Shown here: positions 148 to 24,543 of the stretch, one piece after another | Layout of the letters: the number at the start of each line of letters is the position of its first letter | Numbering within the stretch: position 1 is the first letter of the stretch | IMG/VR virus record: IMGVR_UViG_3300031576_000981 | Coordinates: 1 to 24,543 of that record | Length of the DNA: 24,543 nucleotides | Direction: 5' to 3' (one strand) | Origin: a virus | Notes under the pieces: generated by a model | The model's input: only the letters and a program-made list of their open reading frames with translations | Told to the model about the DNA's origin: nothing | The model's database searches: none | Translations under genes and position numbers: made by a program

Positions 148-160
148 CGCGATATAAATG

Positions 161-185
161 AAAAGCCCCCTGGGTGAGAGGGGGC
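161..185 (-). terminator. Rho-independent terminator ending the leftward early operon
   Basis: On the - strand, GCCCCCT-N7-AGGGGGC is followed by TTTTCATTT, 34 nt downstream of the stop of CDS 219..506. Confidence 0.7.
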
Positions 186-2841: not shown

Positions 2842-2915
2842 GGCACGGGTGGAGTGCCGACACAAGCGCACGAACGTGCCGAAAACAGGCACGAACGTGC
2901 CGAAAACCGGCACGA
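2842..2915. promoter_or_regulatory. Operator-like array: GGCAC-N7-GTGCC (2842-2858), GCACGAACGTGC (2868-2879), GGCACGAACGTGCC (2888-2901) and a half-site (2909-2915)
   Basis: Two perfect palindromes with centres exactly 21 bp apart, embedded in a 21-bp tandem direct repeat (2868-2888 / 2889-2909). Confidence 0.5.
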
Positions 2916-3199
2916 AAGAGCCACGAGAGCGCCGGCCCCCGACACCGCGACGCGCAGCCCCCCGGCCTGACGAGACTGGACTTTCCCCCCGGCCCCAGCC
3001 CCAGCCCCGCCCCCAAAAAAACCAACCCTTTAATGAAAACTCTTTTGAACTTGACCTTGAAGATTTTTTAGGGGATGTAGGGTAAGGGTATAAACCTTCT
3101 TTGCGTATGCCGGGTAAACCTTCGTTGCGCCACGACGCCTCACGGTCGTCGGCGCTTCACCGAAGGGACGTCAAAATTATTTCCTTTGATCTCTCTAAT

Positions 3200-3307: not shown

Positions 3308-3325
3308 GGTTTGCTTTTGTTTCCT
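3272..3325 (+). terminator. Candidate + strand intrinsic terminator (hairpin 2 plus GGTTTGCTTTTGTTT)
   Basis: A GC-rich stem is followed directly by a T-rich run on the + strand only. Confidence 0.45.
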
Positions 3326-3493
3326 TCGTCGGAACGCTGTGACTTTGCGGCGGGCTGTGGCTACGGGCAGGCCCGCGGGGTCAGGATCAAGGCTCGGGAC
3401 GCCGATCGCTTTCCTTTAACGCTCCCCGGCTTGGGACGCCGAAGCCTGCACGTAGCCCCTTTCGGGTCGCTGGCTTCTTTCTGCCTGATCTGC

Positions 3494-4329: not shown

Positions 4330-5184
4330 TCATCGGCCCATGAGCCGCGCCAGCGGCGAGTATTGGGTGAACGCCTTCATGCGCACGCCCCGTGAGTACA
4401 ACTCCACATAATCCAGCGACGACCAGCGTCCGGCCTCCTGCAGGAGGCGCGATGGCGCGCCGTATTCGATGGCGAGCGTGGCAAAGGTGCGGCGGAGCGA
4501 GTGGGGGCTGAAGTGGGGGATGCCGGCGCGGATCGCCAGGCGGCGGCAGAGGGTTTTCAGTCCGCCTCGGGTGAGGGGTTGGCCGCGCGTGAGTGACGAG
4601 CGCGCGAGCGAGACGAAGAGCGTGTCGGCGGCCGCCGCGGGCCGGACGGGGAGCCAGGCCGCGATGAGCGCCGCGGCGTAGGCGTCGAAGACGCCGAACT
4701 TCCACTGTCCCCCTTTGCACAAAACTTTCAGTTGGCCTTGTTCGAGATCGACGTCGGCCAGGCGTAGGCGGCAGAGCTCGGTGGCGCGCAGCCCGGCGCT
4801 GACGGCCAGGCCGACGAGGGCCAGGTCGCGCTTGCCGGTGACGGTGCTGCTGTCGAGGGTGGAGAGCAGGCGCATGAGCTCGTCGGCGGTGAGGGCGCGC
4901 TGTATGCGCTTCGGGTTTCTTGGGAGTTTCAGGTGCGTGACGGTGGCAGGCAGGTCCAGGAAGCGGTAGAGCTTGCGGAGCGCGCACACGGCGACGCCCA
5001 GGCCGGAGCTGCCGAGGCCTCCGGCTTTGCGTTCGGCCAGGTAGCGATCGAGGTCGGCGGGGTTGCTGTTGGCTCGTCCGCCCCAGGCGCTGAAGCGGCG
5101 CAGTTCGGTGAGGTAGGCTTCGACGGTGCGGGTGGAGTGGGTGAGGCTGAGACGATTGTGCAGCTGTTCGAGAGCGGCGTGCAT
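4330..5184 (-). CDS. int: Tyrosine recombinase / phage integrase (XerC/D-like, 284 aa)
   Basis: Trimmed to the ATG at 5184 behind AAGGAG. N-terminal SAM-like core-binding segment (TVEAYLTELRRF). Catalytic-region motifs GLRATEL, HSLRRTFAT and a C-terminal Y-containing tail. Confidence 0.85.
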   Translation of the reverse strand: MHAALEQLHNRLSLTHSTRTVEAYLTELRRFSAWGGRANSNPADLDRYLAERKAGGLGSSGLGVAVCALRKLYRFLDLPATVTHLKLPRNPKRIQRALTADELMRLLSTLDSSTVTGKRDLALVGLAVSAGLRATELCRLRLADVDLEQGQLKVLCKGGQWKFGVFDAYAAALIAAWLPVRPAAAADTLFVSLARSSLTRGQPLTRGGLKTLCRRLAIRAGIPHFSPHSLRRTFATLAIEYGAPSRLLQEAGRWSSLDYVELYSRGVRMKAFTQYSPLARLMGR

Positions 5185-5413
5185 GATCTTCTCCTTAGTG
5201 AGGAGAGTCCGCGCGTGGGTCGCGCGTGCTCGTGCAGTTTTGGAGTGGGCCGCCGTGTTTGCAGCACGGTGGCCCGGCGGAAAGGAAGTGCGAGGTTGGA
5301 GTCGGCTTGACCAGCCGGGCAGTAGAGAAGGAGAGTGGCCAGCCGTTCGGGGCGGGCCACTCTGAACCGGAGGACGCCGGTCGCTGCGTCCATTATAAGG
5401 CATGGAGGACGCG

Positions 5414-8867: not shown

Positions 8868-8892
8868 GCGGTTGGACAGAAAGCCCCCGTGA
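8752..8892 (+). CDS. Possible 46-aa ORF (MRLLLEDLRYWLMIARMDARNLRLSLARVRRIVAAMRAERLDRKPP)
   Basis: Too short for the ORF track and found by hand translation. GC3 is about 83%. Its last 31 codons are duplicated as the C-terminus of the radical-SAM ORF with mostly conservative changes. It ends inside the terminator hairpin. Confidence 0.4.
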   Translation: MRLLLEDLRYWLMIARMDARNLRLSLARVRRIVAAMRAERLDRKPP

Positions 8893-8905
8893 GGGGGCTT
8901 TTGAT
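8796..8905 (+). repeat. 110-bp direct repeat, copy 1 (about 90% identical to 9776-9885)
   Basis: Aligned by eye with about 11 mismatches and no indels. Includes the terminator hairpin. Confidence 0.9.
8880..8902. terminator. Bidirectional intrinsic terminator, AAAGCCCCC-GTGA-GGGGGCTTTT
   Basis: Perfect 9-bp stem flanked by an A-run and a T-run. Confidence 0.7.
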
Positions 8906-8921
8906 ATAGAAAGGTAACAAG

Positions 8922-9872
8922 ATGGGCTGGTCTGGAGGATTTGCAGAATGGATAGAGGGCGACACCGCTTATTTGTCTATCGCCTTCTCATGGCGCTTGC
9001 CGGATGCGTATCAACGTGCTGCTTGGTATCATGCACAGGGCTACCGTGTTAGAGCAGGTGGGCCAGGATTATTCGTGCGCCGAAACTATTTGTCAGAAGT
9101 AGCCGAGATCGGCGGCAGTGAGGTAGATGCATTGATACATCATAATCCTCAAGCGACCATAGCGAGTCGAGGCTGTCCTGTTGGCTGTTATTTTTGCATC
9201 GTTCCGAAAATGGAAGGCTTGCAATTCACACTCCTGCCTGACTTCACACCGCGCCCGATCCTATGTGACAACAATCTATCCGCATTGCCAGTGAAGTATC
9301 AGGAGTTCATCATCGAGAAATATCAGGCATTCAGCGTGACACTCACAGATGCCAACAGCGGTTTTGAGCCGCTGACATTTGATGAAAGCACTTACCACCG
9401 ATGGAAAGCGATCTTGCGCGGGCCATGGCGTTTTGCATTTGACGAAACGAAAGAAGAGCCACAGGTCAGGCGCATGATGACTATTCTCAGAGATGAATCG
9501 CCAAGGCGCAAGCAGGTATATGTTTTAATTGGAAATGAACCGGTAGCAGCCTGTCATGAGCGGGCACAAAAGATCATCGAATGGGGCGGTGAGCCATACC
9601 TTCAGCCATTGATTCCACTCAATGCGCTTGGGCGTGATGATCTTAAAGTTGCCTTTGACTGGACATGGCAGAAACTTAAAGACATGCAACGTTATTACAA
9701 TCGTCATCTCTGGCGTTATTTCCCATTGACAGACTATGTCAATCGGAAAGGCCAACAGCCAATTTTTGTGGGTATGCGGATGGACGCGCGCAATTTGCGG
9801 CTGAGCCTGGAGAAGGTGAAGGGCATCGCGGCGGCGATGCAGGCTGAGCAGTTGGACAGAAAGCCCCCGTGA
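8922..9872 (+). CDS. Radical SAM superfamily enzyme (316 aa), subfamily unknown
   Basis: CxxxCxxC cluster SRGCPVGCYFC (Cys85/89/92, codon for Cys85 at 9174-9176), after an N-terminal domain of about 80 aa. G+C is about 45% in a spot count, against about 80% in a backbone line. AAAGG lies 8 nt before the ATG. Confidence 0.75.
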   Translation: MGWSGGFAEWIEGDTAYLSIAFSWRLPDAYQRAAWYHAQGYRVRAGGPGLFVRRNYLSEVAEIGGSEVDALIHHNPQATIASRGCPVGCYFCIVPKMEGLQFTLLPDFTPRPILCDNNLSALPVKYQEFIIEKYQAFSVTLTDANSGFEPLTFDESTYHRWKAILRGPWRFAFDETKEEPQVRRMMTILRDESPRRKQVYVLIGNEPVAACHERAQKIIEWGGEPYLQPLIPLNALGRDDLKVAFDWTWQKLKDMQRYYNRHLWRYFPLTDYVNRKGQQPIFVGMRMDARNLRLSLEKVKGIAAAMQAEQLDRKPP

Positions 9873-9885
9873 GGGGGCTTTTGAT
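9776..9885 (+). repeat. 110-bp direct repeat, copy 2
   Basis: See 8796-8905. It ends 1 nt before the stop codon of the last late gene (9886). Confidence 0.9.
9860..9882. terminator. Bidirectional intrinsic terminator between the convergent rightward and late operons
   Basis: Identical hairpin to 8880-8902, with an A-run and a T-run on either side. Confidence 0.75.
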
Positions 9886-13099: not shown

Positions 13100-13516
13100 C
13101 TACTCGACGAACAGCCGGCCTACAATGTTGAGCGACCCGGCGATGCTGAGCGGGCCGCGCACGGTCATCGTGTGGCCGGCCGGGATGGTGAGAGAGTGAG
13201 CGGCGGGGACCTCGTCGCGCTGGAAGTAGTCCCAGCCGCCGACTGTGGCGTAGACGCCGAGGATCACCCCGTCGCCGGGGTCGTTCTCGTTGAACAGCAG
13301 CACGGCCACCTTGGCCAGGACGGCGAGCGTGGCCGGGTTGACCCAGTCGCCGACGTCGACCGTGACCTCGCCGTGCGAGCCGTCGAGCTGGACGTTGGCC
13401 TCCCAGGTCGTCGAGTTGAACGAGACGATCCGGCCGCGCCGCAGGCGCGGGCCGGGGCGCGCGCCGGGGGCCTGCTTGCTGGCGAGAGTCTGGTTTTCGA
13501 GGGCGAGGAGGCTCAT
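13100..13516 (-). CDS. Baseplate spike-like (gpV/gp45-type OB-fold) candidate (138 aa)
   Basis: GRIVSFNSTTWEANVQLDG...VTVDVGDW pattern, and position directly after the hub-like gene. Weak, motif-level call. Confidence 0.4.
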   Translation of the reverse strand: MSLLALENQTLASKQAPGARPGPRLRRGRIVSFNSTTWEANVQLDGSHGEVTVDVGDWVNPATLAVLAKVAVLLFNENDPGDGVILGVYATVGGWDYFQRDEVPAAHSLTIPAGHTMTVRGPLSIAGSLNIVGRLFVE

Positions 13517-13523
13517 GGGGATA

Positions 13524-13551
13524 GAGATTGGAGATTGGAGATTGGAGATTG
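13524..13551 (-). repeat. Heptamer tandem (CAATCTC)x4 in gene sense, ending 7 nt upstream of the ATG at 13516
   Basis: + strand gagattg x4, exact. Confidence 0.9.
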
Positions 13552-13574
13552 GACGCCTGAACTGCGGCGGGCGG

Positions 13575-16244: not shown

Positions 16245-16925
16245 TTATGGGTTGGACGTGTCCCACTTGTCGAGCCTCCAACCCTGGTCGGCCCAGGGCT
16301 TGCCGGAGCGGGCGGACTGGGCGCGCAGCGTTTCGAGCCAGGCGTTGAACTCGACGAGCCGGGCCGCGCCCCAGGTCTGCAAGGTCTTGGTCTCGTCGGG
16401 GTCAATGTGGACCTGGCCGACCTGATCGACGGTTTCGCTGAGCGCGGCGTAGGCGGCGGCGCCGGTGACCAGGCCCGATTCGTGGTCGGGGCGCACGGTG
16501 GTGATCGCCCCGGAGTCGAGGTTCTGAATGGTGTGGAGCAGGCTGTACCACAGGCGGAGCTCGTCGTTGAGCTGGGGCTGGTCGTTGTCGGCGGTGTCGA
16601 GGAAGAGGACCGGGCTGCCCAGGTCCCACCACAGTCTGAAGCCGCCCACGCGGTTGGGGGGCCAGGTCTCTTCGGCGGGGGTGGAGTCGTAGGGCCACCA
16701 GACTTCGGAGACGTCGAGCAGCCCGGTGAGGGCGCTGAGCGCGATCTCGCGCCCGTCGCCGGGGAGGGTGATAACGGTCTCGGTCGTGTTGGGATGGACG
16801 CGGCTGTAGTCGTGCAGCGCGGTCAGGAGGGCCTCGTCGAGCGTGGTTGTGGACCAGACGGCGTTGGAGGCGTCCACCAGGCGGGCGGCGATGCGAGTGC
16901 GGAACTGGGCGAGGGTTGAAGGCAT
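16245..16925 (-). CDS. Virion structural protein, head-tail adaptor candidate by position (226 aa)
   Basis: ATG at 16925, with no SD; the octamer array abuts the start codon. No motif recognised. Confidence 0.55.
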   Translation of the reverse strand: MPSTLAQFRTRIAARLVDASNAVWSTTTLDEALLTALHDYSRVHPNTTETVITLPGDGREIALSALTGLLDVSEVWWPYDSTPAEETWPPNRVGGFRLWWDLGSPVLFLDTADNDQPQLNDELRLWYSLLHTIQNLDSGAITTVRPDHESGLVTGAAAYAALSETVDQVGQVHIDPDETKTLQTWGAARLVEFNAWLETLRAQSARSGKPWADQGWRLDKWDTSNP

Positions 16926-16973
16926 TGGGTCAGTGGGTCAGTGGGTCAGTGAGTCAGTGAGTCAGTGAGTCAA
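16926..16973 (-). repeat. Octamer tandem array x6, filling the whole intergenic spacer
   Basis: + strand tgggtcag x3, then tgagtcag x2, then tgagtcaa. In gene sense this reads TGACTCAC x3 / TGACCCAC x3. Confidence 0.9.
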
Positions 16974-18150: not shown

Positions 18151-20385
18151 TTATGCCACGTTGCTCTTGTGCATGGGCCGGAAGTCGGCGACGCCGACGG
18201 CGACGTGGTGCCGGACTTTGACTCTAAATTCGTCGTTCATGAACACGGCGGGGGAGAGTTCATCGCCGGCCACGAAGATTTCGGGCATCAGGCCGAAGGC
18301 CTCGCCGATGCAGACGCCGGGGACGAGCATCGGGTCGCAGACGGCGGCCCAGTCGGTGGCGTCGGTCCACTCGGGGACGGTGATGGGCACGACCGCGCCG
18401 CCGTAGGTCGGGCCTCCGGAGGCGGCAATGCCGGCTTCGACGACGCCTGACCAGCGCGGGATGAACAGCGCTTCGGCCTGGCCTTTGAGCGCGCGCGGGA
18501 CCAGGCAGAACTTGGGATCGAGTGCGAGCTTCGCGCCCGTGCCGATGTAGCCGGCGTCGTTCGAGACGAGCATGGGTTGGTTGTAGACGGCGGCGGCGAC
18601 GACGTCCCAGGCGGCGAAGGTGGTTCCGAGCGCAGTCGTGAGCAGGTTCAAGTGGCCACCCGCGGTCGTGACGGCTGTGCTGTTGAAGAGCGCGCCGCCG
18701 TCTACGAGCGTGGGGCCGATGGCCGCGTTGTCGGTAAACAGGTCGGCGACTTCCTTGGAGATGTTGCGGATGCCGGCGTTGGCGAGCTCGCGCGGGGTCT
18801 GGACGATCTTGCGCGTGTCGTCGTTGATGATGTCCTCCAGGTCGATCCCGACATAGCCGCCGTACTTGACGAACGAGCTGAGCTCGTGGCCCTCGCCGAT
18901 CATGAGGGGCGTGTACTCCGCGCCCTTGGCCACGACGGGCAGGCTGGCGATCGTGCCGGTGATGAGCCAGCGGATCTGCTGCAGGTTGGTGAAGTGCTCG
19001 ACGTGGGCGATCTTGGTCCACCAGTCGTAGCCGGCGCGGCCGAGTTCGTTCCAGCGGGTGACGACGGCCTTGTTCATCACGTTGGCGACGATGGACGCGA
19101 ACGAGCCAGTGTTGAGTTGGGCGTGCTCGGCGTAGTAGCCGCCGTGAAAGTCGCGGTCGCCCGTGAACATCAGGTAGAGCTGGCGAATGCCGTCGAGCTT
19201 GGCGACTTTGAGGGCCTGCAGGGCCGGATCGCGGGCGACGTTGAACAGGTCGTGCACGGCGGCCCGGATGGCGTCTTCGCCGTTGAACATGGCGCTGATG
19301 CGCCCGGGCCCCTGCACCGCAGCGCCGGCGGTGAGCTGACTGACGAGCTCGCGCGCGTCGTCGATCGCGGCCGTGAGCTCGGGCGGGTCAAAGACGCGGC
19401 CGGCAAACTGCTTGCGGACGGCGGCTTGCGATGGGGCAGGGAGCTTCGAGGCGGCCAGGCCGGTGTCGAGCAGGTGGGCGCAGGCCTGCAGCCGGATGGC
19501 GCGCATCTTTTCGACCTCGGCGGTCATGGCGGTCTGCTGCTCCTGCGCGTTGAGGATCACGCGCAGCGCGTCGGCGTCCTTCTGCATCTGCGCCTGGGCG
19601 GTGCTGGAACCAGCCGCGGGCGCGGGCGGCGCGGCTGGCGCGGGGGAAGTGTTGTCGCTCATGTGATTTAGCCTCCACTCTTGCGACTGATTCAGAGCGC
19701 GGAGAAATGCCCCGCCGCGCGCGGGGTCGTACACCAGGTCGAGCGTGGCGATACGCAGGATTTGGATCACTTCAACGCCGGAGGCGGTGAAGTACAGGTC
19801 GAGCGAGAATCCGACGTCGGGCTTGGGTTCGGCCTCGGAGAGCATCTCCTGTCCCAGCTGGCGCACGAGCGGGCCGCTGGGGCCCAGCGGGCGGAGCGAG
19901 AGCGTAATGCCCTGCAGCTCTTCGTCCCACTGCTGGTTGTAGTAGGAGCCGCCCAGGTCGCGGAGATCGCGCATCCACCAGGAATGGTTGACGAAGCAGT
20001 CGAGGTGATCCCACAGCGGCAGGCTGGCCTGGATGGCCGCGGCGGAGAAGTTCCAGCCGTTGGCGTGGCCGGCGGTGATGCCGACGACCTCGAAGTCGCC
20101 TTCGCGGGTGAGGCGGGCGCGGGCGCTGAAGGCGGCGTGCTGTTCGACAAGTTCGGGCATCGTGGACTCCTTCTTGCGGGTTGGGATGCTGGAGAGGTCG
20201 CCGCTTTCCGGCGCGTCGGTTTCTTCCATCTCACAGCGGCAATTGTCGCCGCAGAGTGTGCCCTTGCCAGGGGCCCACAGGTGGGACTTCTGCCAATCGG
20301 GCCGGGTGTGGACCTGACCATTGGCCGTGCGGCAGGTATCGCAGGTGTCGGCGTCCACCCTGGCTTTCCACTCGTACTTTTTCAC
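18151..20385 (-). CDS. Fusion ORF (744 codons): gp7/MuF-type Zn-ribbon tail + prohead protease-like + coiled-coil scaffold-like + major capsid protein
   Basis: aa 1-55: CDTC...GDNCRCEME. aa about 80-235: CFVNHSWW...LDLVYDPARGG, which is protease-like. aa about 242-345: Ala/Gln-rich helical. C-terminal about 400 aa is capsid-like. GTG start in a GTGA overlap with the portal stop. Confidence 0.7.
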   Translation of the reverse strand: MKKYEWKARVDADTCDTCRTANGQVHTRPDWQKSHLWAPGKGTLCGDNCRCEMEETDAPESGDLSSIPTRKKESTMPELVEQHAAFSARARLTREGDFEVVGITAGHANGWNFSAAAIQASLPLWDHLDCFVNHSWWMRDLRDLGGSYYNQQWDEELQGITLSLRPLGPSGPLVRQLGQEMLSEAEPKPDVGFSLDLYFTASGVEVIQILRIATLDLVYDPARGGAFLRALNQSQEWRLNHMSDNTSPAPAAPPAPAAGSSTAQAQMQKDADALRVILNAQEQQTAMTAEVEKMRAIRLQACAHLLDTGLAASKLPAPSQAAVRKQFAGRVFDPPELTAAIDDARELVSQLTAGAAVQGPGRISAMFNGEDAIRAAVHDLFNVARDPALQALKVAKLDGIRQLYLMFTGDRDFHGGYYAEHAQLNTGSFASIVANVMNKAVVTRWNELGRAGYDWWTKIAHVEHFTNLQQIRWLITGTIASLPVVAKGAEYTPLMIGEGHELSSFVKYGGYVGIDLEDIINDDTRKIVQTPRELANAGIRNISKEVADLFTDNAAIGPTLVDGGALFNSTAVTTAGGHLNLLTTALGTTFAAWDVVAAAVYNQPMLVSNDAGYIGTGAKLALDPKFCLVPRALKGQAEALFIPRWSGVVEAGIAASGGPTYGGAVVPITVPEWTDATDWAAVCDPMLVPGVCIGEAFGLMPEIFVAGDELSPAVFMNDEFRVKVRHHVAVGVADFRPMHKSNVA

Positions 20386-21845
20386 GGAGGCACTCCGTGG
20401 CCGTTTCTGCGGTCGTGAGCTAACTTCTCTTTGTCGGGTTCTTCCACGTCGGCGTCCACGTCGGGGTCAGTGGGCTTGACCGTGGGGATTGCAGATTTGG
20501 GATTTGAGGGGGCAGATTTTGGCGGCGGGGCGGCTGCGCCGCGGGCGAGCATTTCCTCGACGTCGATGATCTCCCCGGCGAATTTGTAGGACAGGCGCAG
20601 CAGTTCGGCGTCGTCGACGAGTTGGCGGTCGCGCAGTTCCTTGAACGCGGCCACGATCGTAGAAGCGGCGACGGCCAGGGCGGCATTGTCGCGCCCGGAG
20701 ATGTCGGAAGCGCCGACGCTGATCTCTTCGCGGGCGCTGACGCGCCCGCCGGCCAGGGCGCGGCGCAGGCGCGCGACGTGGAGCACGTCGGCGATCATCC
20801 AGCGGAAACAGAGCTGGCGCTGCTCGTAGTGGCGGAAGGTCGGCCCGCCGGATTGCTCGGCGGTGGTGCGGGTCGAGCCTTCGGGTTCGGCCAGGAAGTG
20901 CATGGGATTGGCCGACCCGGCCGCGATCATTTTCTTGACGGCCAGGCCGTCCTTCTCGGCGTCGGCGGACTCGAGCCGGGGCGATTTGACGTCCCACACT
21001 TCGCTGTTGTCGTGGACGTTCAAGCTTCCGGGGTTGGGCGGGTTGAGATTGAGTTCGGCTTCGCGCTTTTTGCGCGCGGTCTCGTTGTCGAACTTGGCGG
21101 CCACGTCCCAGATGAAGGCCTGGCGGTGGCGGTTGAGCCGGACCCGGTCTTCCAACCAGGCGTCGTAGCGGGTGAGCCAGCGGACGAGCGGGCCGAGATC
21201 CGACTCGCCCCACTGCGCGCCGACAGCGCGGTTGACGGCGTAGTGGAGCACGACGGGGCGGAAGTGGCCGGCGGGCGTCGGCGCGTCGCGGTCTTCGTCG
21301 TAGGCCGGCCAGGGCTTCGGGTCCGGGTCTTGTAGGGTCATCTTCGGATGGAAGAAGGTGGGCTGCTCGACGTCGTTTTTGACGTGGTCAATGTGGTCGA
21401 CGTCGCAGGCCGGGACCCCCCTGACGTAGGACATGCCGGCGTCGTCGGTGCTGAGCAAAATGAAGAGATTGCCGGAGCGGGTGAGCTCGTCGCATAGCTC
21501 CATGCTGCGAATGTTCATGCGGTTGAGGCGGTGCGACCAGAATTTTTTCAGGAAGGCGGCGGTCTCCTCGTGCTTGCAGGCGGGGACCAGGCCGTCGCCG
21601 ACGACGTACTGCGTGGTCAGCTCGACGATGCGGCGCGCGAGCGGGTTGTCGCGCCAGACGAGCAGGGCGTCGAGCAGGATTTCTTCGCGCTTGTAGTCGT
21701 AGCGGTCGCGCCAGTTCTGCGAGGAGGCGGCGCGGGCGCCGATCATGAAGGTGGAGTCGGTTTCGGCGACGGCCAGGGCGACGCGGCGGTCGATCTCTTT
21801 CTGGATCGCGCGGGACAGCTTGGGCTTCTTATGCGCCACGGTCAA
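20382..21845 (-). CDS. Portal protein (487 aa)
   Basis: Size, position between TerL and capsid, and the N-terminal segment RDRYDYKREEILLDALLVWRDNPLARRIVELTTQYVVGDG. The listed start is TTG at 21845. GTG at 21839, with AGGA 8 nt upstream, is an alternative. Confidence 0.75.
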   Translation of the reverse strand: MTVAHKKPKLSRAIQKEIDRRVALAVAETDSTFMIGARAASSQNWRDRYDYKREEILLDALLVWRDNPLARRIVELTTQYVVGDGLVPACKHEETAAFLKKFWSHRLNRMNIRSMELCDELTRSGNLFILLSTDDAGMSYVRGVPACDVDHIDHVKNDVEQPTFFHPKMTLQDPDPKPWPAYDEDRDAPTPAGHFRPVVLHYAVNRAVGAQWGESDLGPLVRWLTRYDAWLEDRVRLNRHRQAFIWDVAAKFDNETARKKREAELNLNPPNPGSLNVHDNSEVWDVKSPRLESADAEKDGLAVKKMIAAGSANPMHFLAEPEGSTRTTAEQSGGPTFRHYEQRQLCFRWMIADVLHVARLRRALAGGRVSAREEISVGASDISGRDNAALAVAASTIVAAFKELRDRQLVDDAELLRLSYKFAGEIIDVEEMLARGAAAPPPKSAPSNPKSAIPTVKPTDPDVDADVEEPDKEKLAHDRRNGHGVPP

Positions 21846-23373
21846 TGTCCTGGAGCGGGTCGCGGCCGGGGACGACGAAGCCCGGGCCGGCGGCGGGCGT
21901 CCACTCCTGCTCGTCGAGCACGGCGCTGAGCGCGGCGGAGATCACGGTGTCGTCGTGAACGAGCTGGCCGGTGGCGGGGTCGCGCGCGCCGGCGGGCGCG
22001 CCCCACCTGAGAGTCTGGTGTAGCCCGGCTTCGTATTGGACGAACTCGAGCTCGCGCCAGAAGGTCGCTGACTCTGGGTCGTCTGCCCCCTCGGGTATGG
22101 CCCAATCCTGCCAGCGTCCGGTTTCGACGATGGCGAGGAACTGCCAGCCGAGTTGGGACTTGGTGGCGGAATTGAAGATGAAGGGGAGCACCTTGCCGGG
22201 CAGGGCTTTGTCGAGGAAGCTCGCCAGCCCGGCGCCTACGCCGGTGGCGTCCACGACCAGGAAGCGGGCGCGCCAATCCACAGCCAGGCGCACGAGAGTC
22301 GAGTAAAGCGTGGTGTGCTTGACGCCGATCCACAGGCGGCGATCCACGGCGCGGTACGAGGGGGCGGCGACGAGGGGATCGCTCACGGTGGCGGGGTCCA
22401 CCTCGACGATGGTCAGCGCGATGGCGTCGCGCTCGGGGTGTTCGAGCGCGGCCAGGCCGACCTTGTCGCCGGTCGCCCCCTCGTCTTCTCCGGCGACGTC
22501 GAGCAGGAAGGCGTAGACGCTGCCCGGGCGGGGCTGCGCCTGGCGCGGGTGGCTGCCCACCATGAGCGCGCGCCGGGCGGCGGGGAACATGCCGCCGTCA
22601 GCGTCGATCTCTTCGTTGTAATACTGAGTCTTGACGAGTGGGTGATTGCGGCCGTACTTGGCGACCTGGCGGGCGACGAAGTCGCCATAGGCCGGGTTCT
22701 CTTTGGAGACCTGGTCGGGGGTGACGAGGAAGACGCGCTGGACGTGGTCGCGGATCTCGGCCTCGCGCAGGCGCTTGATGGTCCTGGCGAGGAGGGTCTG
22801 GGAAGTCCAGGCGGTGCCCCATAGGACCATGGTGGCGTTGGTCGAGGCCATCATGGGCTCAAACTTCCTTCCCCACTCCGACTCTTGAATGTCCTGGGCT
22901 TCGTCGCCTTCGAGCATGAGGGTCGCCGATGCGCCGACGGCGGAGGCGGACGGCTCGGCGGAGAAGAACGTGATCAACGCCTGTCCGAGTTGGAAGATGT
23001 AGCCCTCGCGCTTTTTCCATTGGCCGCGATTGACCCAGTTGTCGAGCGCGCGCTCCAGCCTCATCATGGCGTTGATCGCCTGCGGTTTGAACGTTGGCTG
23101 GGCCTTGACGATCTGCGCGCCGGGAGTGCGGTTGAAGACATTGAGGAGGTAGGCCTCGATCTGCGACTGGGTTTCGTTCTTCCCGGATTGGCGCGGGAAG
23201 AGCACGGCGAATTCGCGGCCCTGCCGGAAGATGACGGAGCGCAAGATGGCGTTGGCCGCCTCGGCCTGATAGCGGTAGAGCTTGCGCCGGATGACGAGCC
23301 CGCTGAACGGTCGAATGCTGCTCAGGAATTCCCTGGCTAGTTTGAACTTCTGGTCTGCGGTGAGTTCGATCAT
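21829..23373 (-). CDS. terL: Terminase large subunit (514 aa)
   Basis: Walker-A-like FPRQSGKNET near the N-terminus. Size and position immediately upstream of the portal. The ATG at 23373 abuts the previous stop. Confidence 0.8.
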   Translation of the reverse strand: MIELTADQKFKLAREFLSSIRPFSGLVIRRKLYRYQAEAANAILRSVIFRQGREFAVLFPRQSGKNETQSQIEAYLLNVFNRTPGAQIVKAQPTFKPQAINAMMRLERALDNWVNRGQWKKREGYIFQLGQALITFFSAEPSASAVGASATLMLEGDEAQDIQESEWGRKFEPMMASTNATMVLWGTAWTSQTLLARTIKRLREAEIRDHVQRVFLVTPDQVSKENPAYGDFVARQVAKYGRNHPLVKTQYYNEEIDADGGMFPAARRALMVGSHPRQAQPRPGSVYAFLLDVAGEDEGATGDKVGLAALEHPERDAIALTIVEVDPATVSDPLVAAPSYRAVDRRLWIGVKHTTLYSTLVRLAVDWRARFLVVDATGVGAGLASFLDKALPGKVLPFIFNSATKSQLGWQFLAIVETGRWQDWAIPEGADDPESATFWRELEFVQYEAGLHQTLRWGAPAGARDPATGQLVHDDTVISAALSAVLDEQEWTPAAGPGFVVPGRDPLQDIDRGA

Positions 23374-23577
23374 TCATGGTTTGACGAGTTTGAACAGAAG
23401 TTCGGCGACGACGCCGAGGATGGTGAACAGCAGCAGCCGGTTCTGGCTGAGCAGCAGCTGCTCGATGCGGTTGAGCTGCGCGTGGTCGGGGCCGGGCGGC
23501 TCGTCGGACTGGCCTGGGTGGGGCGGCGCCGGGAAGAGTCGGCGGAGCGAGGCGGCGAGGAGTTTGCCGCCGTTCAC
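23374..23577 (-). CDS. Small protein between TerS-like and TerL (about 67 aa; start GTG 23577 or ATG 23592)
   Basis: GTGA overlap with the TerS-like stop. C-terminal hydrophobic helix LLLFTILGVVAELLF. Confidence 0.45.
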   Translation of the reverse strand: MNGGKLLAASLRRLFPAPPHPGQSDEPPGPDHAQLNRIEQLLLSQNRLLLFTILGVVAELLFKLVKP

Positions 23578-23942
23578 AGCTCGACTCCCCATTCGGTGCT
23601 GAGCTCGTCCAGGGCCTGGCCGATGGCGGCGGCCATGCCGTCGGCGGCGGCGCCGGTGAGGGCGCGCTGGTCGCGCAGCAGGCGGCCGAGGCGGCTGGCG
23701 TTCTGGCCGTGCAGCCCCAGCAGCTTGACGACTGTCTCGGTGTCTGCCCCCTCGGGGTCGGTGAGTGTGGCGTCGATGTAGGCGGAGAGCTGCGCCTGGC
23801 GCGCCTGGGCGTCGGCCAGAATGTCGGCGATGGTCAGGAGCGGGTGAGGGGGCGCGGCGTAGACGCCGTGCCTGCGGGCGTTGGCGTTGCCGGGCTGGGC
23901 GCCCTTTGGCTTACGCGCGGCGCGGGTTTTGTGAGGGGGCAC
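23574..23942 (-). CDS. Terminase small subunit-like protein (122 aa)
   Basis: N-terminal basic segment with GNANARRHGVYA, the GNxNAxKHGxY-type motif common in proteins encoded upstream of terL. GTG start. Confidence 0.55.
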   Translation of the reverse strand: MPPHKTRAARKPKGAQPGNANARRHGVYAAPPHPLLTIADILADAQARQAQLSAYIDATLTDPEGADTETVVKLLGLHGQNASRLGRLLRDQRALTGAAADGMAAAIGQALDELSTEWGVEL

Positions 23943-24057
23943 AGAAATCGGCTGGGATGGCGAGGCGGCGTGCGACGTGGAAGGCGAGGGTGTAGGCCAG
24001 GGCCAGGAGCAGGATGAGGAGCAGGCCGGCGGCCTGCGCGGCGCGATCCATGTGCAT
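23911..24057 (-). CDS. Possible 48-aa single-TM protein, first gene of the late operon
   Basis: MHMDRAAQAAGLLLILLLALAYTLAFHVARR. GC3 about 85% by hand count. Overlaps the TerS-like start by 32 nt. Short leader without SD. Confidence 0.45.
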   Translation of the reverse strand: MHMDRAAQAAGLLLILLLALAYTLAFHVARRLAIPADFCAPSQNPRRA

Positions 24058-24063
24058 AAGTGG

Positions 24064-24075
24064 AATCTTATAGCA
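24064..24075 (-). promoter_or_regulatory. Candidate late promoter, extended -10 TGcTATAAG
   Basis: The reverse complement of 24067-24075 reads TGCTATAAG, 9 nt upstream of the ATG at 24057. Only a weak -35 (TTGCGT, with a short spacer). Confidence 0.4.
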
Positions 24076-24184
24076 CAACCGTTTTATACGCAAGTTGCGT
24101 GTAGTCGAACATGGGAAGGTTGTAGGGGGCTTGGGGGGGGGCGCACCCACAACGAATGGGCCGGTGGCGCGGGCGGGCTGAAAG

Positions 24185-24213
24185 CCGCGTCCCGCGTCCA
24201 TCCGGCCTACCGC
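24185..24213 (-). repeat. Inverted copy of the 29-bp element at 3865-3893
   Basis: ccgcgtcccgcgtccatccggcctaccgc is the exact reverse complement of gcggtaggccggatggacgcgggacgcgg. Confidence 0.9.
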
Positions 24214-24543
24214 TGGACTGTGCGCGCCGTGCACTAGTCGGCGCGATGCGGTGCGGCAGTGGCGCGCTCACTTCGCGCCATCGGTTTGCCGCGCCGGGGG
24301 TGTGGGGCGGACGTACCCGCCCCACCGCCGCGTACTCGCGGCGAGCGCGCCGTGCACTAGTCGGCGCGATGCGGCGCGGCAGTGGCGCGCTCACTTCGCG
24401 CCATCGGCTTGCCGCGCCGGGGGTGTGGGGCGGACGTACCCGCCCCACCGCCGCGTACTCGCGGCGAGCGCGCCGTGCACTAGTCGGCGCGATGCGGTGC
24501 GGCAGTGGCGCGCTCACTTCGCGCCATCGGCTTGCCGCACCGG
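24205..24543. repeat. 123-bp tandem repeat array: diverged or partial first unit from about 24205, full unit 24322-24444, then a unit starting at 24445 that continues into nt 1-123
   Basis: The period was measured between identical ccaccgccg starts at 24322 and 24445. Only 3 variable positions among the copies. Confidence 0.9.

Follow-up and report, generated by a model that had tools for sequence, protein, structure and literature searches.

A hairpin-saturated 123-bp tandem array ahead of the packaging genes of a small temperate phage, possibly a DNA minisatellite

The virus record IMGVR_UViG_3300031576_000981, analysed here at its full length of 24,543 nt (the window), is a small temperate tailed phage of 24.4 kb. 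In the non-coding spacer before its packaging genes a 123-bp unit, largely made up of four perfect palindromes, is repeated head to tail. The unit has no coding potential, is not conserved in relatives, and differs in copy number between two assemblies of the phage, while unrelated tandem arrays recur at the same site in other members of the phage group. The overall reading we favour, to which we give an even chance, is that the array is a young, dispensable, copy-number-variable and lineage-specific DNA minisatellite. It is a new orphan, a single-locus case of a known feature type, the unstable intergenic tandem repeat.

Tandem Repeats Finder (TRF) returned a period of 123 bp with 97% matches over 24222-24543. 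The units are contiguous, the period being equal to the unit size. We follow the unit numbering of an earlier reading made from the letters alone (the sequence-only reading), whose description of the unit was borne out. Direct reading and an inverted-repeat scan both recovered its four hairpins: H1 (CGCCGCG-TACT-CGCGGCG, 7-bp stem), H2 (CGCGCCG-N9-CGGCGCG, 7-bp stem and 9-nt loop), the nested H3 (outer stem of 10 bp, inner stem of 7 bp) and H4 (GTGGGGCGG-ACGTAC-CCGCCCCAC, 9-bp stem). The perfect stems cover 14+14+20+14+18 = 80 of the 123 nt in each unit, the proportion it had estimated. With the hairpins in the order H2-H3-H4-H1, and with no strand assigned to any unit, unit 1 lies at 24222-24344 and unit 2 at 24345-24467. 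Unit 3 runs across the contig ends, as 24468-24543 (its first 76 nt) plus 100-146, the remainder (100-147) holding H4 at 104-127 and a variant terminal hairpin, H1', at 126-147. As had been noticed, the copies differ at three positions only, unit nt 54, 87 and 95, all of them transitions; unit 1 carries T54, T87 and G95, and unit 2, in which every stem is perfect, carries C54, C87 and G95. H1' (ACGTGGCCG-TACT-CGGCCACGT) closes the third unit in place of H1. It keeps the loop and the two closing pairs (GTACTC), and the other five of the seven stem pairs are swapped on both sides.

In the ancestral-looking unit all 40 stem pairs are Watson-Crick, and the consensus is free of G-U pairs and bulges. 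Compared with dinucleotide shuffles, a single unit folds with z = -4.1 as + strand RNA (-84.6 kcal/mol per unit), -3.4 as - strand RNA and -7.0 as DNA, and 99.4% of cells are paired across the four distinct units. The array holds perfect short-loop hairpins at about 20 times the density found elsewhere in the phage (12 in ~370 nt against 38 in ~24,070 nt). The GC content is 77%, against 65.5% for the phage, and no second copy of the array was found elsewhere in the phage genome.

The window ends inside the array. Positions 1-99 are an exact copy of 24445-24543, a terminal overlap of the kind assemblers leave, and the window is a circular-style contig whose break point falls within the tandem repeat. 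Because the first 99 nt repeat the last 99 nt, the genome is 24,444 bp long and the array holds three units, not the ~3.8 that result when the overlap is counted twice, as it had been in the sequence-only reading. An exact-protein look-up with the large terminase (TerL) led to an independent k=141 assembly, the ENA contig ERZ27247320:k141_3047514 (L005), which differs from the window at 2 positions in the ~9.2 kb compared outside the array (~0.02%). It spans the whole array internally, with unique sequence on both flanks, so the junction implied by the window ends, across which the array had been proposed to continue to about nt 147, is real. Since a k=141 contig crosses the array between unique flanks, at least two tandem units are real as well. 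L005 carries two units and the window three. Its length of 24,462 nt equals 24,444 - 123 + 141, which would fit a 141-nt overlap together with one unit fewer. In exact-protein look-ups for further samples with the array, L005 was the sole other contig covering it, and look-ups with the neighbouring 221-aa and 95-aa proteins gave no match.

The second assembly also bears on the pair formed by nt 54 and 95 in H3, which the sequence-only reading had taken as a compensated base-pair change that identified the + strand as the folded one. One L005 unit ('a') is identical to unit 1 of the window, and the second reads C54:A95. The two assemblies together therefore show the pair in all four combinations (C:G, T:G, T:A and C:A). 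On the + strand C:A is a mismatch; only the - strand can form a wobble there, and both strands fold well. Because all four allele combinations exist, the argument for a + strand RNA fails, and the pair is not consistently compensated. The changes at 54 and 95 are the same C-to-T in GG[C]GCGG, one in each palindrome arm. A mutational hotspot would fit this mirrored pattern as well as selection does, and recurrent hotspot mutation or recombination between units could explain the alleles without selection for pairing.

Codon-position composition gives the array no coding character. GC1, GC2 and GC3 are flat (0.74-0.80) whichever frame is read, compared with 0.63-0.77, 0.45-0.54 and 0.87-0.90, respectively, in the neighbouring genes, and no gene is called over the array in the public contig L005. 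A coding repeat (41-aa unit) was rejected on this composition, and a clustered regularly interspaced short palindromic repeat (CRISPR) array was rejected because near-identical units abut without spacers; the sequence-only reading had come to the same view on both points.

Homology searches were negative throughout. Megablast of the whole window and blastn (word size 11) of the array against phage and plasmid collections gave no match. The exact 24-mer of H4 occurs neither in IMG/VR, nor in the GTDB representative genomes (one genome from each of 185,579 species), nor in the JGI metagenomes; the window itself is absent from these collections. Blastn of the array against 198 related loci found no homologue. 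The four distinct units and their full structure went into a covariance model, which was run over 1.65 Mb from ~200 related loci and found none either, the best non-self match (27 bits) lying inside a coding region. Rfam 15 gave no match over the window at gathering thresholds, on which ground a known curated RNA family was rejected, and in E-value mode over the array it gave chance-level matches only (<=17 bits, E >=1.5) and none to CRISPR-DR. Given no covariance homologue, and within-locus variation that consists of a block swap and a site with all allele combinations, we did not class the array as a new conserved structured RNA. A search of the literature on tandem arrays upstream of terS or in Anaerolineae prophages turned up nothing directly relevant.

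The array lies in a non-coding gap between a - strand terminator and the - strand packaging operon. The sequence-only reading had placed it correctly in a coding-poor interval upstream of that operon, but the gap measures ~550 bp rather than ~650 bp. Read along the - strand, the order is the early gene block, the terminator, H1' and the array, ~170 nt with a conserved hairpin, a promoter-like box and the first ATG. The intrinsic terminator of the upstream operon, which had also been noted, is at 165-185 (- strand; GCCCCCT-N7-AGGGGGC followed by TTTTCATTT), directly before the array in the direction of transcription. It is 38/42 identical (90%) in L001, the closest relative. A putative late promoter on the - strand, at 24067-24093, consists of TTGCGT, 15 nt and TGC-TATAAG (extended -10, TGCTATAAG). 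The consensus promoter scan did not call it and found no promoter on either strand; the proposed assignment comes from direct reading and from conservation in L001, where the promoter-like box is 37/47 identical. The box with its extended -10 was noted at window 24057-24075 and at L001:4000-4025. Placed ~10 nt before the first ATG, such a promoter would yield an mRNA that is leaderless or nearly so.

Between the array and this box lies a conserved imperfect hairpin, GACGCGGCTTTCAGCCCGC (24173-24191, - strand), which is single-copy in the window. In the form GACGCGGCTT[T/A]CAGCCCGC it is 18/19 identical to both copies in L001 (3773-3791 and 3830-3848), and it is the only spacer block besides terminator and promoter that is conserved between the two phages. 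It is a better candidate for a conserved cis-acting site than the 123-bp array.

The comparison with relatives separates the array from the genes it precedes. Terminase relatives are Chloroflexota prophages and phage contigs, mostly from Anaerolineae (Bellilinea, Pelolinea, Leptolinea and Anaerolineaceae metagenome-assembled genomes, MAGs). In L001, TerL is 82% identical and the small terminase (TerS)-like protein is 91% identical, including its N-terminus. The L001 spacer between terminator and promoter contains no trace of the 123-bp unit. At the same spot lies an array with a 57-bp unit, present in 2.2 copies and a degenerate third one; the 24173-24191 hairpin is part of this unit and is triplicated within the array. 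A type I-C CRISPR repeat ('ATTGAAAG') was considered for the L001 array and rejected, there being no meaningful Rfam match at gathering or E-value thresholds. Further relatives, in which the TerS-like protein is 48-67% identical (L002, L003, L004 and L200; 62% in L002 and L003) or more distant (L215), have plain spacers of ~100-190 nt with no array.

For the wider group, TRF was run over all fetched loci and the arrays were positioned relative to TerL in 500-nt bins. Twelve de-duplicated arrays lie 500-2000 nt upstream of TerL, among ~118-146 loci covering those bins, and the other upstream bins hold 0-2 arrays. A second peak, in more distant relatives, is found just after TerL. The spacer arrays comprise 57 bp x 2.2 copies in L001, 36 bp x 2.8 in L009, 159 bp x 2.6 in L014 and L091, 291 bp x 2 in L019, 190 bp x 1.9 in L029, 74 bp x 2.4 in L040, 98 bp x 3.4 in L082, 100 bp x 2.3 in L111, 44 bp x 4.2 in L117, 60 bp x 1.9 in L134 and 52 bp x 2 in L175-177. 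Their units are mutually unrelated, ranging from 36 to 291 bp and from 34 to 69% GC, and half of the lengths are not divisible by three; in ORF (open reading frame) maps of 11 spacer arrays no ORF with gene-like composition covers the array. Only about half of the arrays are strongly hairpin-forming when compared with mononucleotide shuffles (z <= -5 in L009, L014, L082, L111 and L117; z near 0 in L001, L019, L029, L040 and L175). The spacer is thus a recurrent site of tandem amplification, with no common sequence or structure, and the great majority of relatives have no array.

Several other features were seen in the related loci. In L096 (8927-9124 and 11309-11402) and L070 (1938-2026) there are 40-42-bp CCTCCCCTT..AAGGGGAGG hairpin units, the 40-bp unit of L096 occurring at two places, and in L082 related CACAGAGA-type arrays flank TerL (1-336 and 3309-3473). 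The hairpin repeats of these three loci look like host families of the repetitive extragenic palindrome/bacterial interspersed mosaic element (REP/BIME) kind that also colonise prophage spacers. A genuine-looking CRISPR array with the repeat GTTTTCCCCACACACGTGGGGGTGTACC and a 61-bp period is present at L144:1047-2844, in a Brevefilum MAG, ~2-4 kb upstream of a related prophage terminase. In the P0020 lineage (L210-L216), Logan contigs from five runs (L210, L211, L212, L214 and L216) share their first base, which lies within the small hydrophobic ORF, 43 nt ahead of the TerS-like gene; a repeat, a variant or a physical end could account for it.

How might the array have arisen? In the minisatellite reading, a 123-bp cluster of four perfect palindromes with 77% GC would have been amplified in tandem to two or three copies. 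Slipped-strand mispairing or unequal recombination among the units would then add and remove copies. The spacer, the one sizeable non-coding spacer of the late region, may be a hotspot that permits such events throughout the phage group. The palindromes would act at the level of DNA, in the same way on both strands, and processes such as hairpin-templated repair or template switching could have produced the perfect stems. Four features are the reasons for preferring DNA-level processes over a selected RNA: stems made up of perfect Watson-Crick pairs, the symmetry between strands, the exchange of H1 for H1' as one block, and the mirrored C-to-T hotspot. Divergence is also in keeping with this reading: ~2% between units, against the ~0.02% that separates the two genomes outside the array. 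If the array has any effect, it may be that of a bidirectional hairpin roadblock or insulator that backs up the terminator and shields the late promoter from read-through and antisense transcription, an idea suggested by its position directly after a canonical terminator and before the putative late promoter.

Some observations weigh against this reading. The saturation with hairpins and the H1/H1' pair look more designed than neutral duplication needs, and the loops of H1, H2 and H3 have YACT in common, a likeness noticed post hoc. That arrays recur at this particular spacer could be due to selection instead of permissiveness. The difference between three and two units could be an assembler effect rather than a true variable-number tandem repeat (VNTR), and the array hairpins lack U-tracts, which speaks against an insulator. 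Hairpin saturation, the H1/H1' swap, the YACT loops and the recurrence of arrays lead us to reserve a small residual probability for a functional class of multi-hairpin cis-elements that phages of Anaerolineae-type hosts would repeatedly have evolved before the packaging operon. A loop-specific protein would read their hairpins, which share YACT loops and have freely exchangeable stems, in single-stranded DNA or RNA, and possible roles are packaging start or enhancement, or a decoy against host defence.

The sequence-only reading had offered three functions, namely a packaging site, a reiterated RNA and an iteron- or centromere-like element, none of which is upheld by the comparisons. A packaging signal, that is, a pac/cos recognition or accessory array bound or wrapped by the oligomeric small terminase encoded just downstream, would account for the position directly upstream of the packaging operon, the usual place of cos and pac, and for the recurrence of tandem arrays there; several related contigs (L009, L082 and L117) have an end in such an array or close to one. 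It is common, however, for assemblers to break contigs in repeats, most relatives are arrayless, and the 122-aa protein is a TerS by position only. A sequence-specific partner of that protein should be conserved with it, which the array is not, as the 91%-identical TerS-like protein of L001 goes with an unrelated array; the sole conserved block other than promoter and terminator is the different hairpin at 24173-24191. We consider this explanation unlikely. That the unit was captured from a host REP/BIME-like palindromic family, and landed and was amplified in the phage spacer, is rather unlikely too. It would explain the higher GC of the array, BIME-like clusters are known to vary in copy number, and the Anaerolineae loci L096 and L082 carry dispersed hairpin repeats in tandem arrays. 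Against it stand the lack of another copy in the phage, the absence of the exact H4 24-mer from all species genomes and metagenomes searched, and the lack of a blastn or covariance-model match in the ~200 Chloroflexota loci, which need not include the host genome.

For a reiterated structured RNA, with four hairpins per unit serving, e.g., as a decoy, processing or antitermination signal, one can cite the very stable fold, the nearly complete pairing across units and the H1-to-H1' change, which keeps the loop while five pairs are swapped. That change is one block swap and not five independent events, the two strands fold equally well, the consensus has neither G-U pairs nor bulges, and pair 54/95 includes a mismatch among its four states. 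The array moreover sits between a terminator and the putative promoter, in a region where the promoter scan was empty on both strands, and neither Rfam nor the relatives supplied a homologue. We therefore regard such an RNA as improbable. The same can be said, with somewhat more emphasis, of a replication origin, iteron or centromere-like element (cf. P4 crr) bound by a phage initiator or partition protein. The direct repeats do adjoin a short AT-rich patch (window 150-165) and follow the early gene block, and the one-signed GC skew of the genome cannot place an origin elsewhere; but the AT patch is the T-tract of the terminator, the unit has no short iteron (its only recurring hexamer being the palindrome arms, common genome-wide), no Rep, initiator or Par protein was recognised, and relatives with some of the same early genes lack the array. 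The divergent promoters at 2854-3100 offer a more canonical candidate. Least credible is that the array or its copy number was made by an assembler. The window does end inside the array with an overlap, the two assemblies disagree on unit number, and allele phasing within repeats is error-prone. This is countered by the k=141 contig that crosses the whole array, by distinguishing variants within units that are <99 nt apart, and by similar arrays inside long prophage contigs of relatives, e.g., that of L014/L091 in a 423-kb contig.

The packaging genes lie on the - strand. The first gene of the operon (23911-24057) encodes a 48-aa hydrophobic protein, with homologous small ORFs at the same place in L001, L002 and L004. 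The TerS-like protein of 122 aa (23574-23942) starts with a basic, disordered N-terminal part that contains a GNxNAxxHGxY motif, and three long helices come after it. The protein has no Pfam or PHROG match and 343 homologues, none of them named, and its AlphaFold2 model (predicted local distance difference test score of 83) gave no significant fold match in the PDB, T4-type small terminases appearing only at E ~3-6. A 72-aa protein is encoded between it and TerL (21829-23373, with weak Terminase_6C and PHROG TerL matches), after which come the portal (20382-21845) and a protease-capsid fusion (18151-20385). In the early region, annotation with Pfam and PHROG recognised only a tyrosine integrase (4330-5403), a DNA methyltransferase and a radical-SAM-like protein, and no replication initiator, Rep or Par protein.

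Other repeats and biases were noted in the window. Three 21-bp tandem units at 2854-2916, each a small hairpin (CGTGCCG-AAAAC-CGGCACG type; GTGCC-N7-GGCAC), adjoin a strongly AT-rich tract (3010-3100) at divergent early promoters. As a candidate operator or origin, repeats and tract together (2854-3100) are more canonical than the 123-bp array. A 33-nt direct repeat with a terminator hairpin, GTTGGACAGAAAGCCCCCGTGAGGGGGCTTTTGAT, at 8870-8905 and 9850-9885, brackets the radical-SAM-like gene (8922-9872), where GC is low (52-57%), and the region 8870-9885 looks like an inserted cargo ('moron') cassette. Short tandem repeats on the + strand, GAGATTG x4.3 at 13524-13553 and GTCAGTGA x5.5 at 16929-16972, lie directly upstream of the start codons of the - strand late genes 13100-13516 and 16245-16925 and may represent 5' leaders of an unusual kind or tracts prone to slippage. 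At 605-637, between the - strand genes 647-1312 and 247-549, is a perfect GC hairpin of 12 bp, GCCCCGCGCCCG-N9-CGGGCGCGGGGC. In each 1-kb window the + strand has a positive GC skew (0.007 to 0.32), whatever the gene orientation; the mostly - strand late genes are therefore C-rich on their coding strand, and the one-signed skew suggests a replication-driven, one-directional strand bias.

Among known systems the array can be set beside the REP/BIME elements (BIME-2 type) of enterobacteria. Like them, it is intergenic, just after the 3' end of an operon, and consists of tandem GC-rich palindromic units, and the copy number of such elements differs between close strains as it does between our two assemblies (three and two units, with the assembly caveat above). 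The roles proposed for REP/BIME, attenuation of transcription and effects on mRNA or topology rather than a sequence-specific essential function, are of the kind that could be likened to the array. REPs, however, are imperfect palindromes dispersed in hundreds of copies over the host chromosome and linked to REP-associated tyrosine transposases (RAYTs), whereas the array has perfect stems, four different palindromes per unit and no second locus in the collections searched. With bacterial intergenic minisatellites and VNTRs, such as the mycobacterial interspersed repetitive units (MIRUs; 40-100 bp), it shares the head-to-tail intergenic layout, a unit of tens to ~100 bp, high identity between copies, a copy number that varies between near-identical genomes, and restriction of each family to one lineage. 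MIRUs differ in being dispersed families, often in phase with flanking ORFs, and in not being saturated with hairpins; the array is a single-locus orphan in a phage.

The likeness to P4 crr, with its two ~120-bp direct repeats, lies in unit length and direct-repeat layout in a small temperate element. In P4, crr functions through short type I iterons, to which the alpha primase-helicase binds, and in concert with a separate ori; neither iterons nor an alpha-like protein were found here. Repeated elements immediately upstream of packaging genes are also seen in lambda cosB and SPP1 pac, but those are short sites that co-vary with TerS, while the array is not conserved with the TerS-like protein. 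CRISPR arrays resemble it in their regularly spaced palindromic repeats and differ in having spacers.

For annotation, the lesson is that an array as strikingly dense in hairpins as this one, with a base pair that seems compensated, can be a DNA minisatellite that evolves fast, and that a covariation argument resting on three copies can be undone by a single further assembly of the same phage. At the level of the group, a poorly known one of Chloroflexota phages, unrelated tandem arrays have repeatedly been acquired in the spacer that separates the early terminator from the packaging promoter. If this pattern reflects terminase-induced breaks or selection for an insulator, the arrays would be usable as a marker of the packaging start region and as a natural VNTR for tracking strains in metagenomes.

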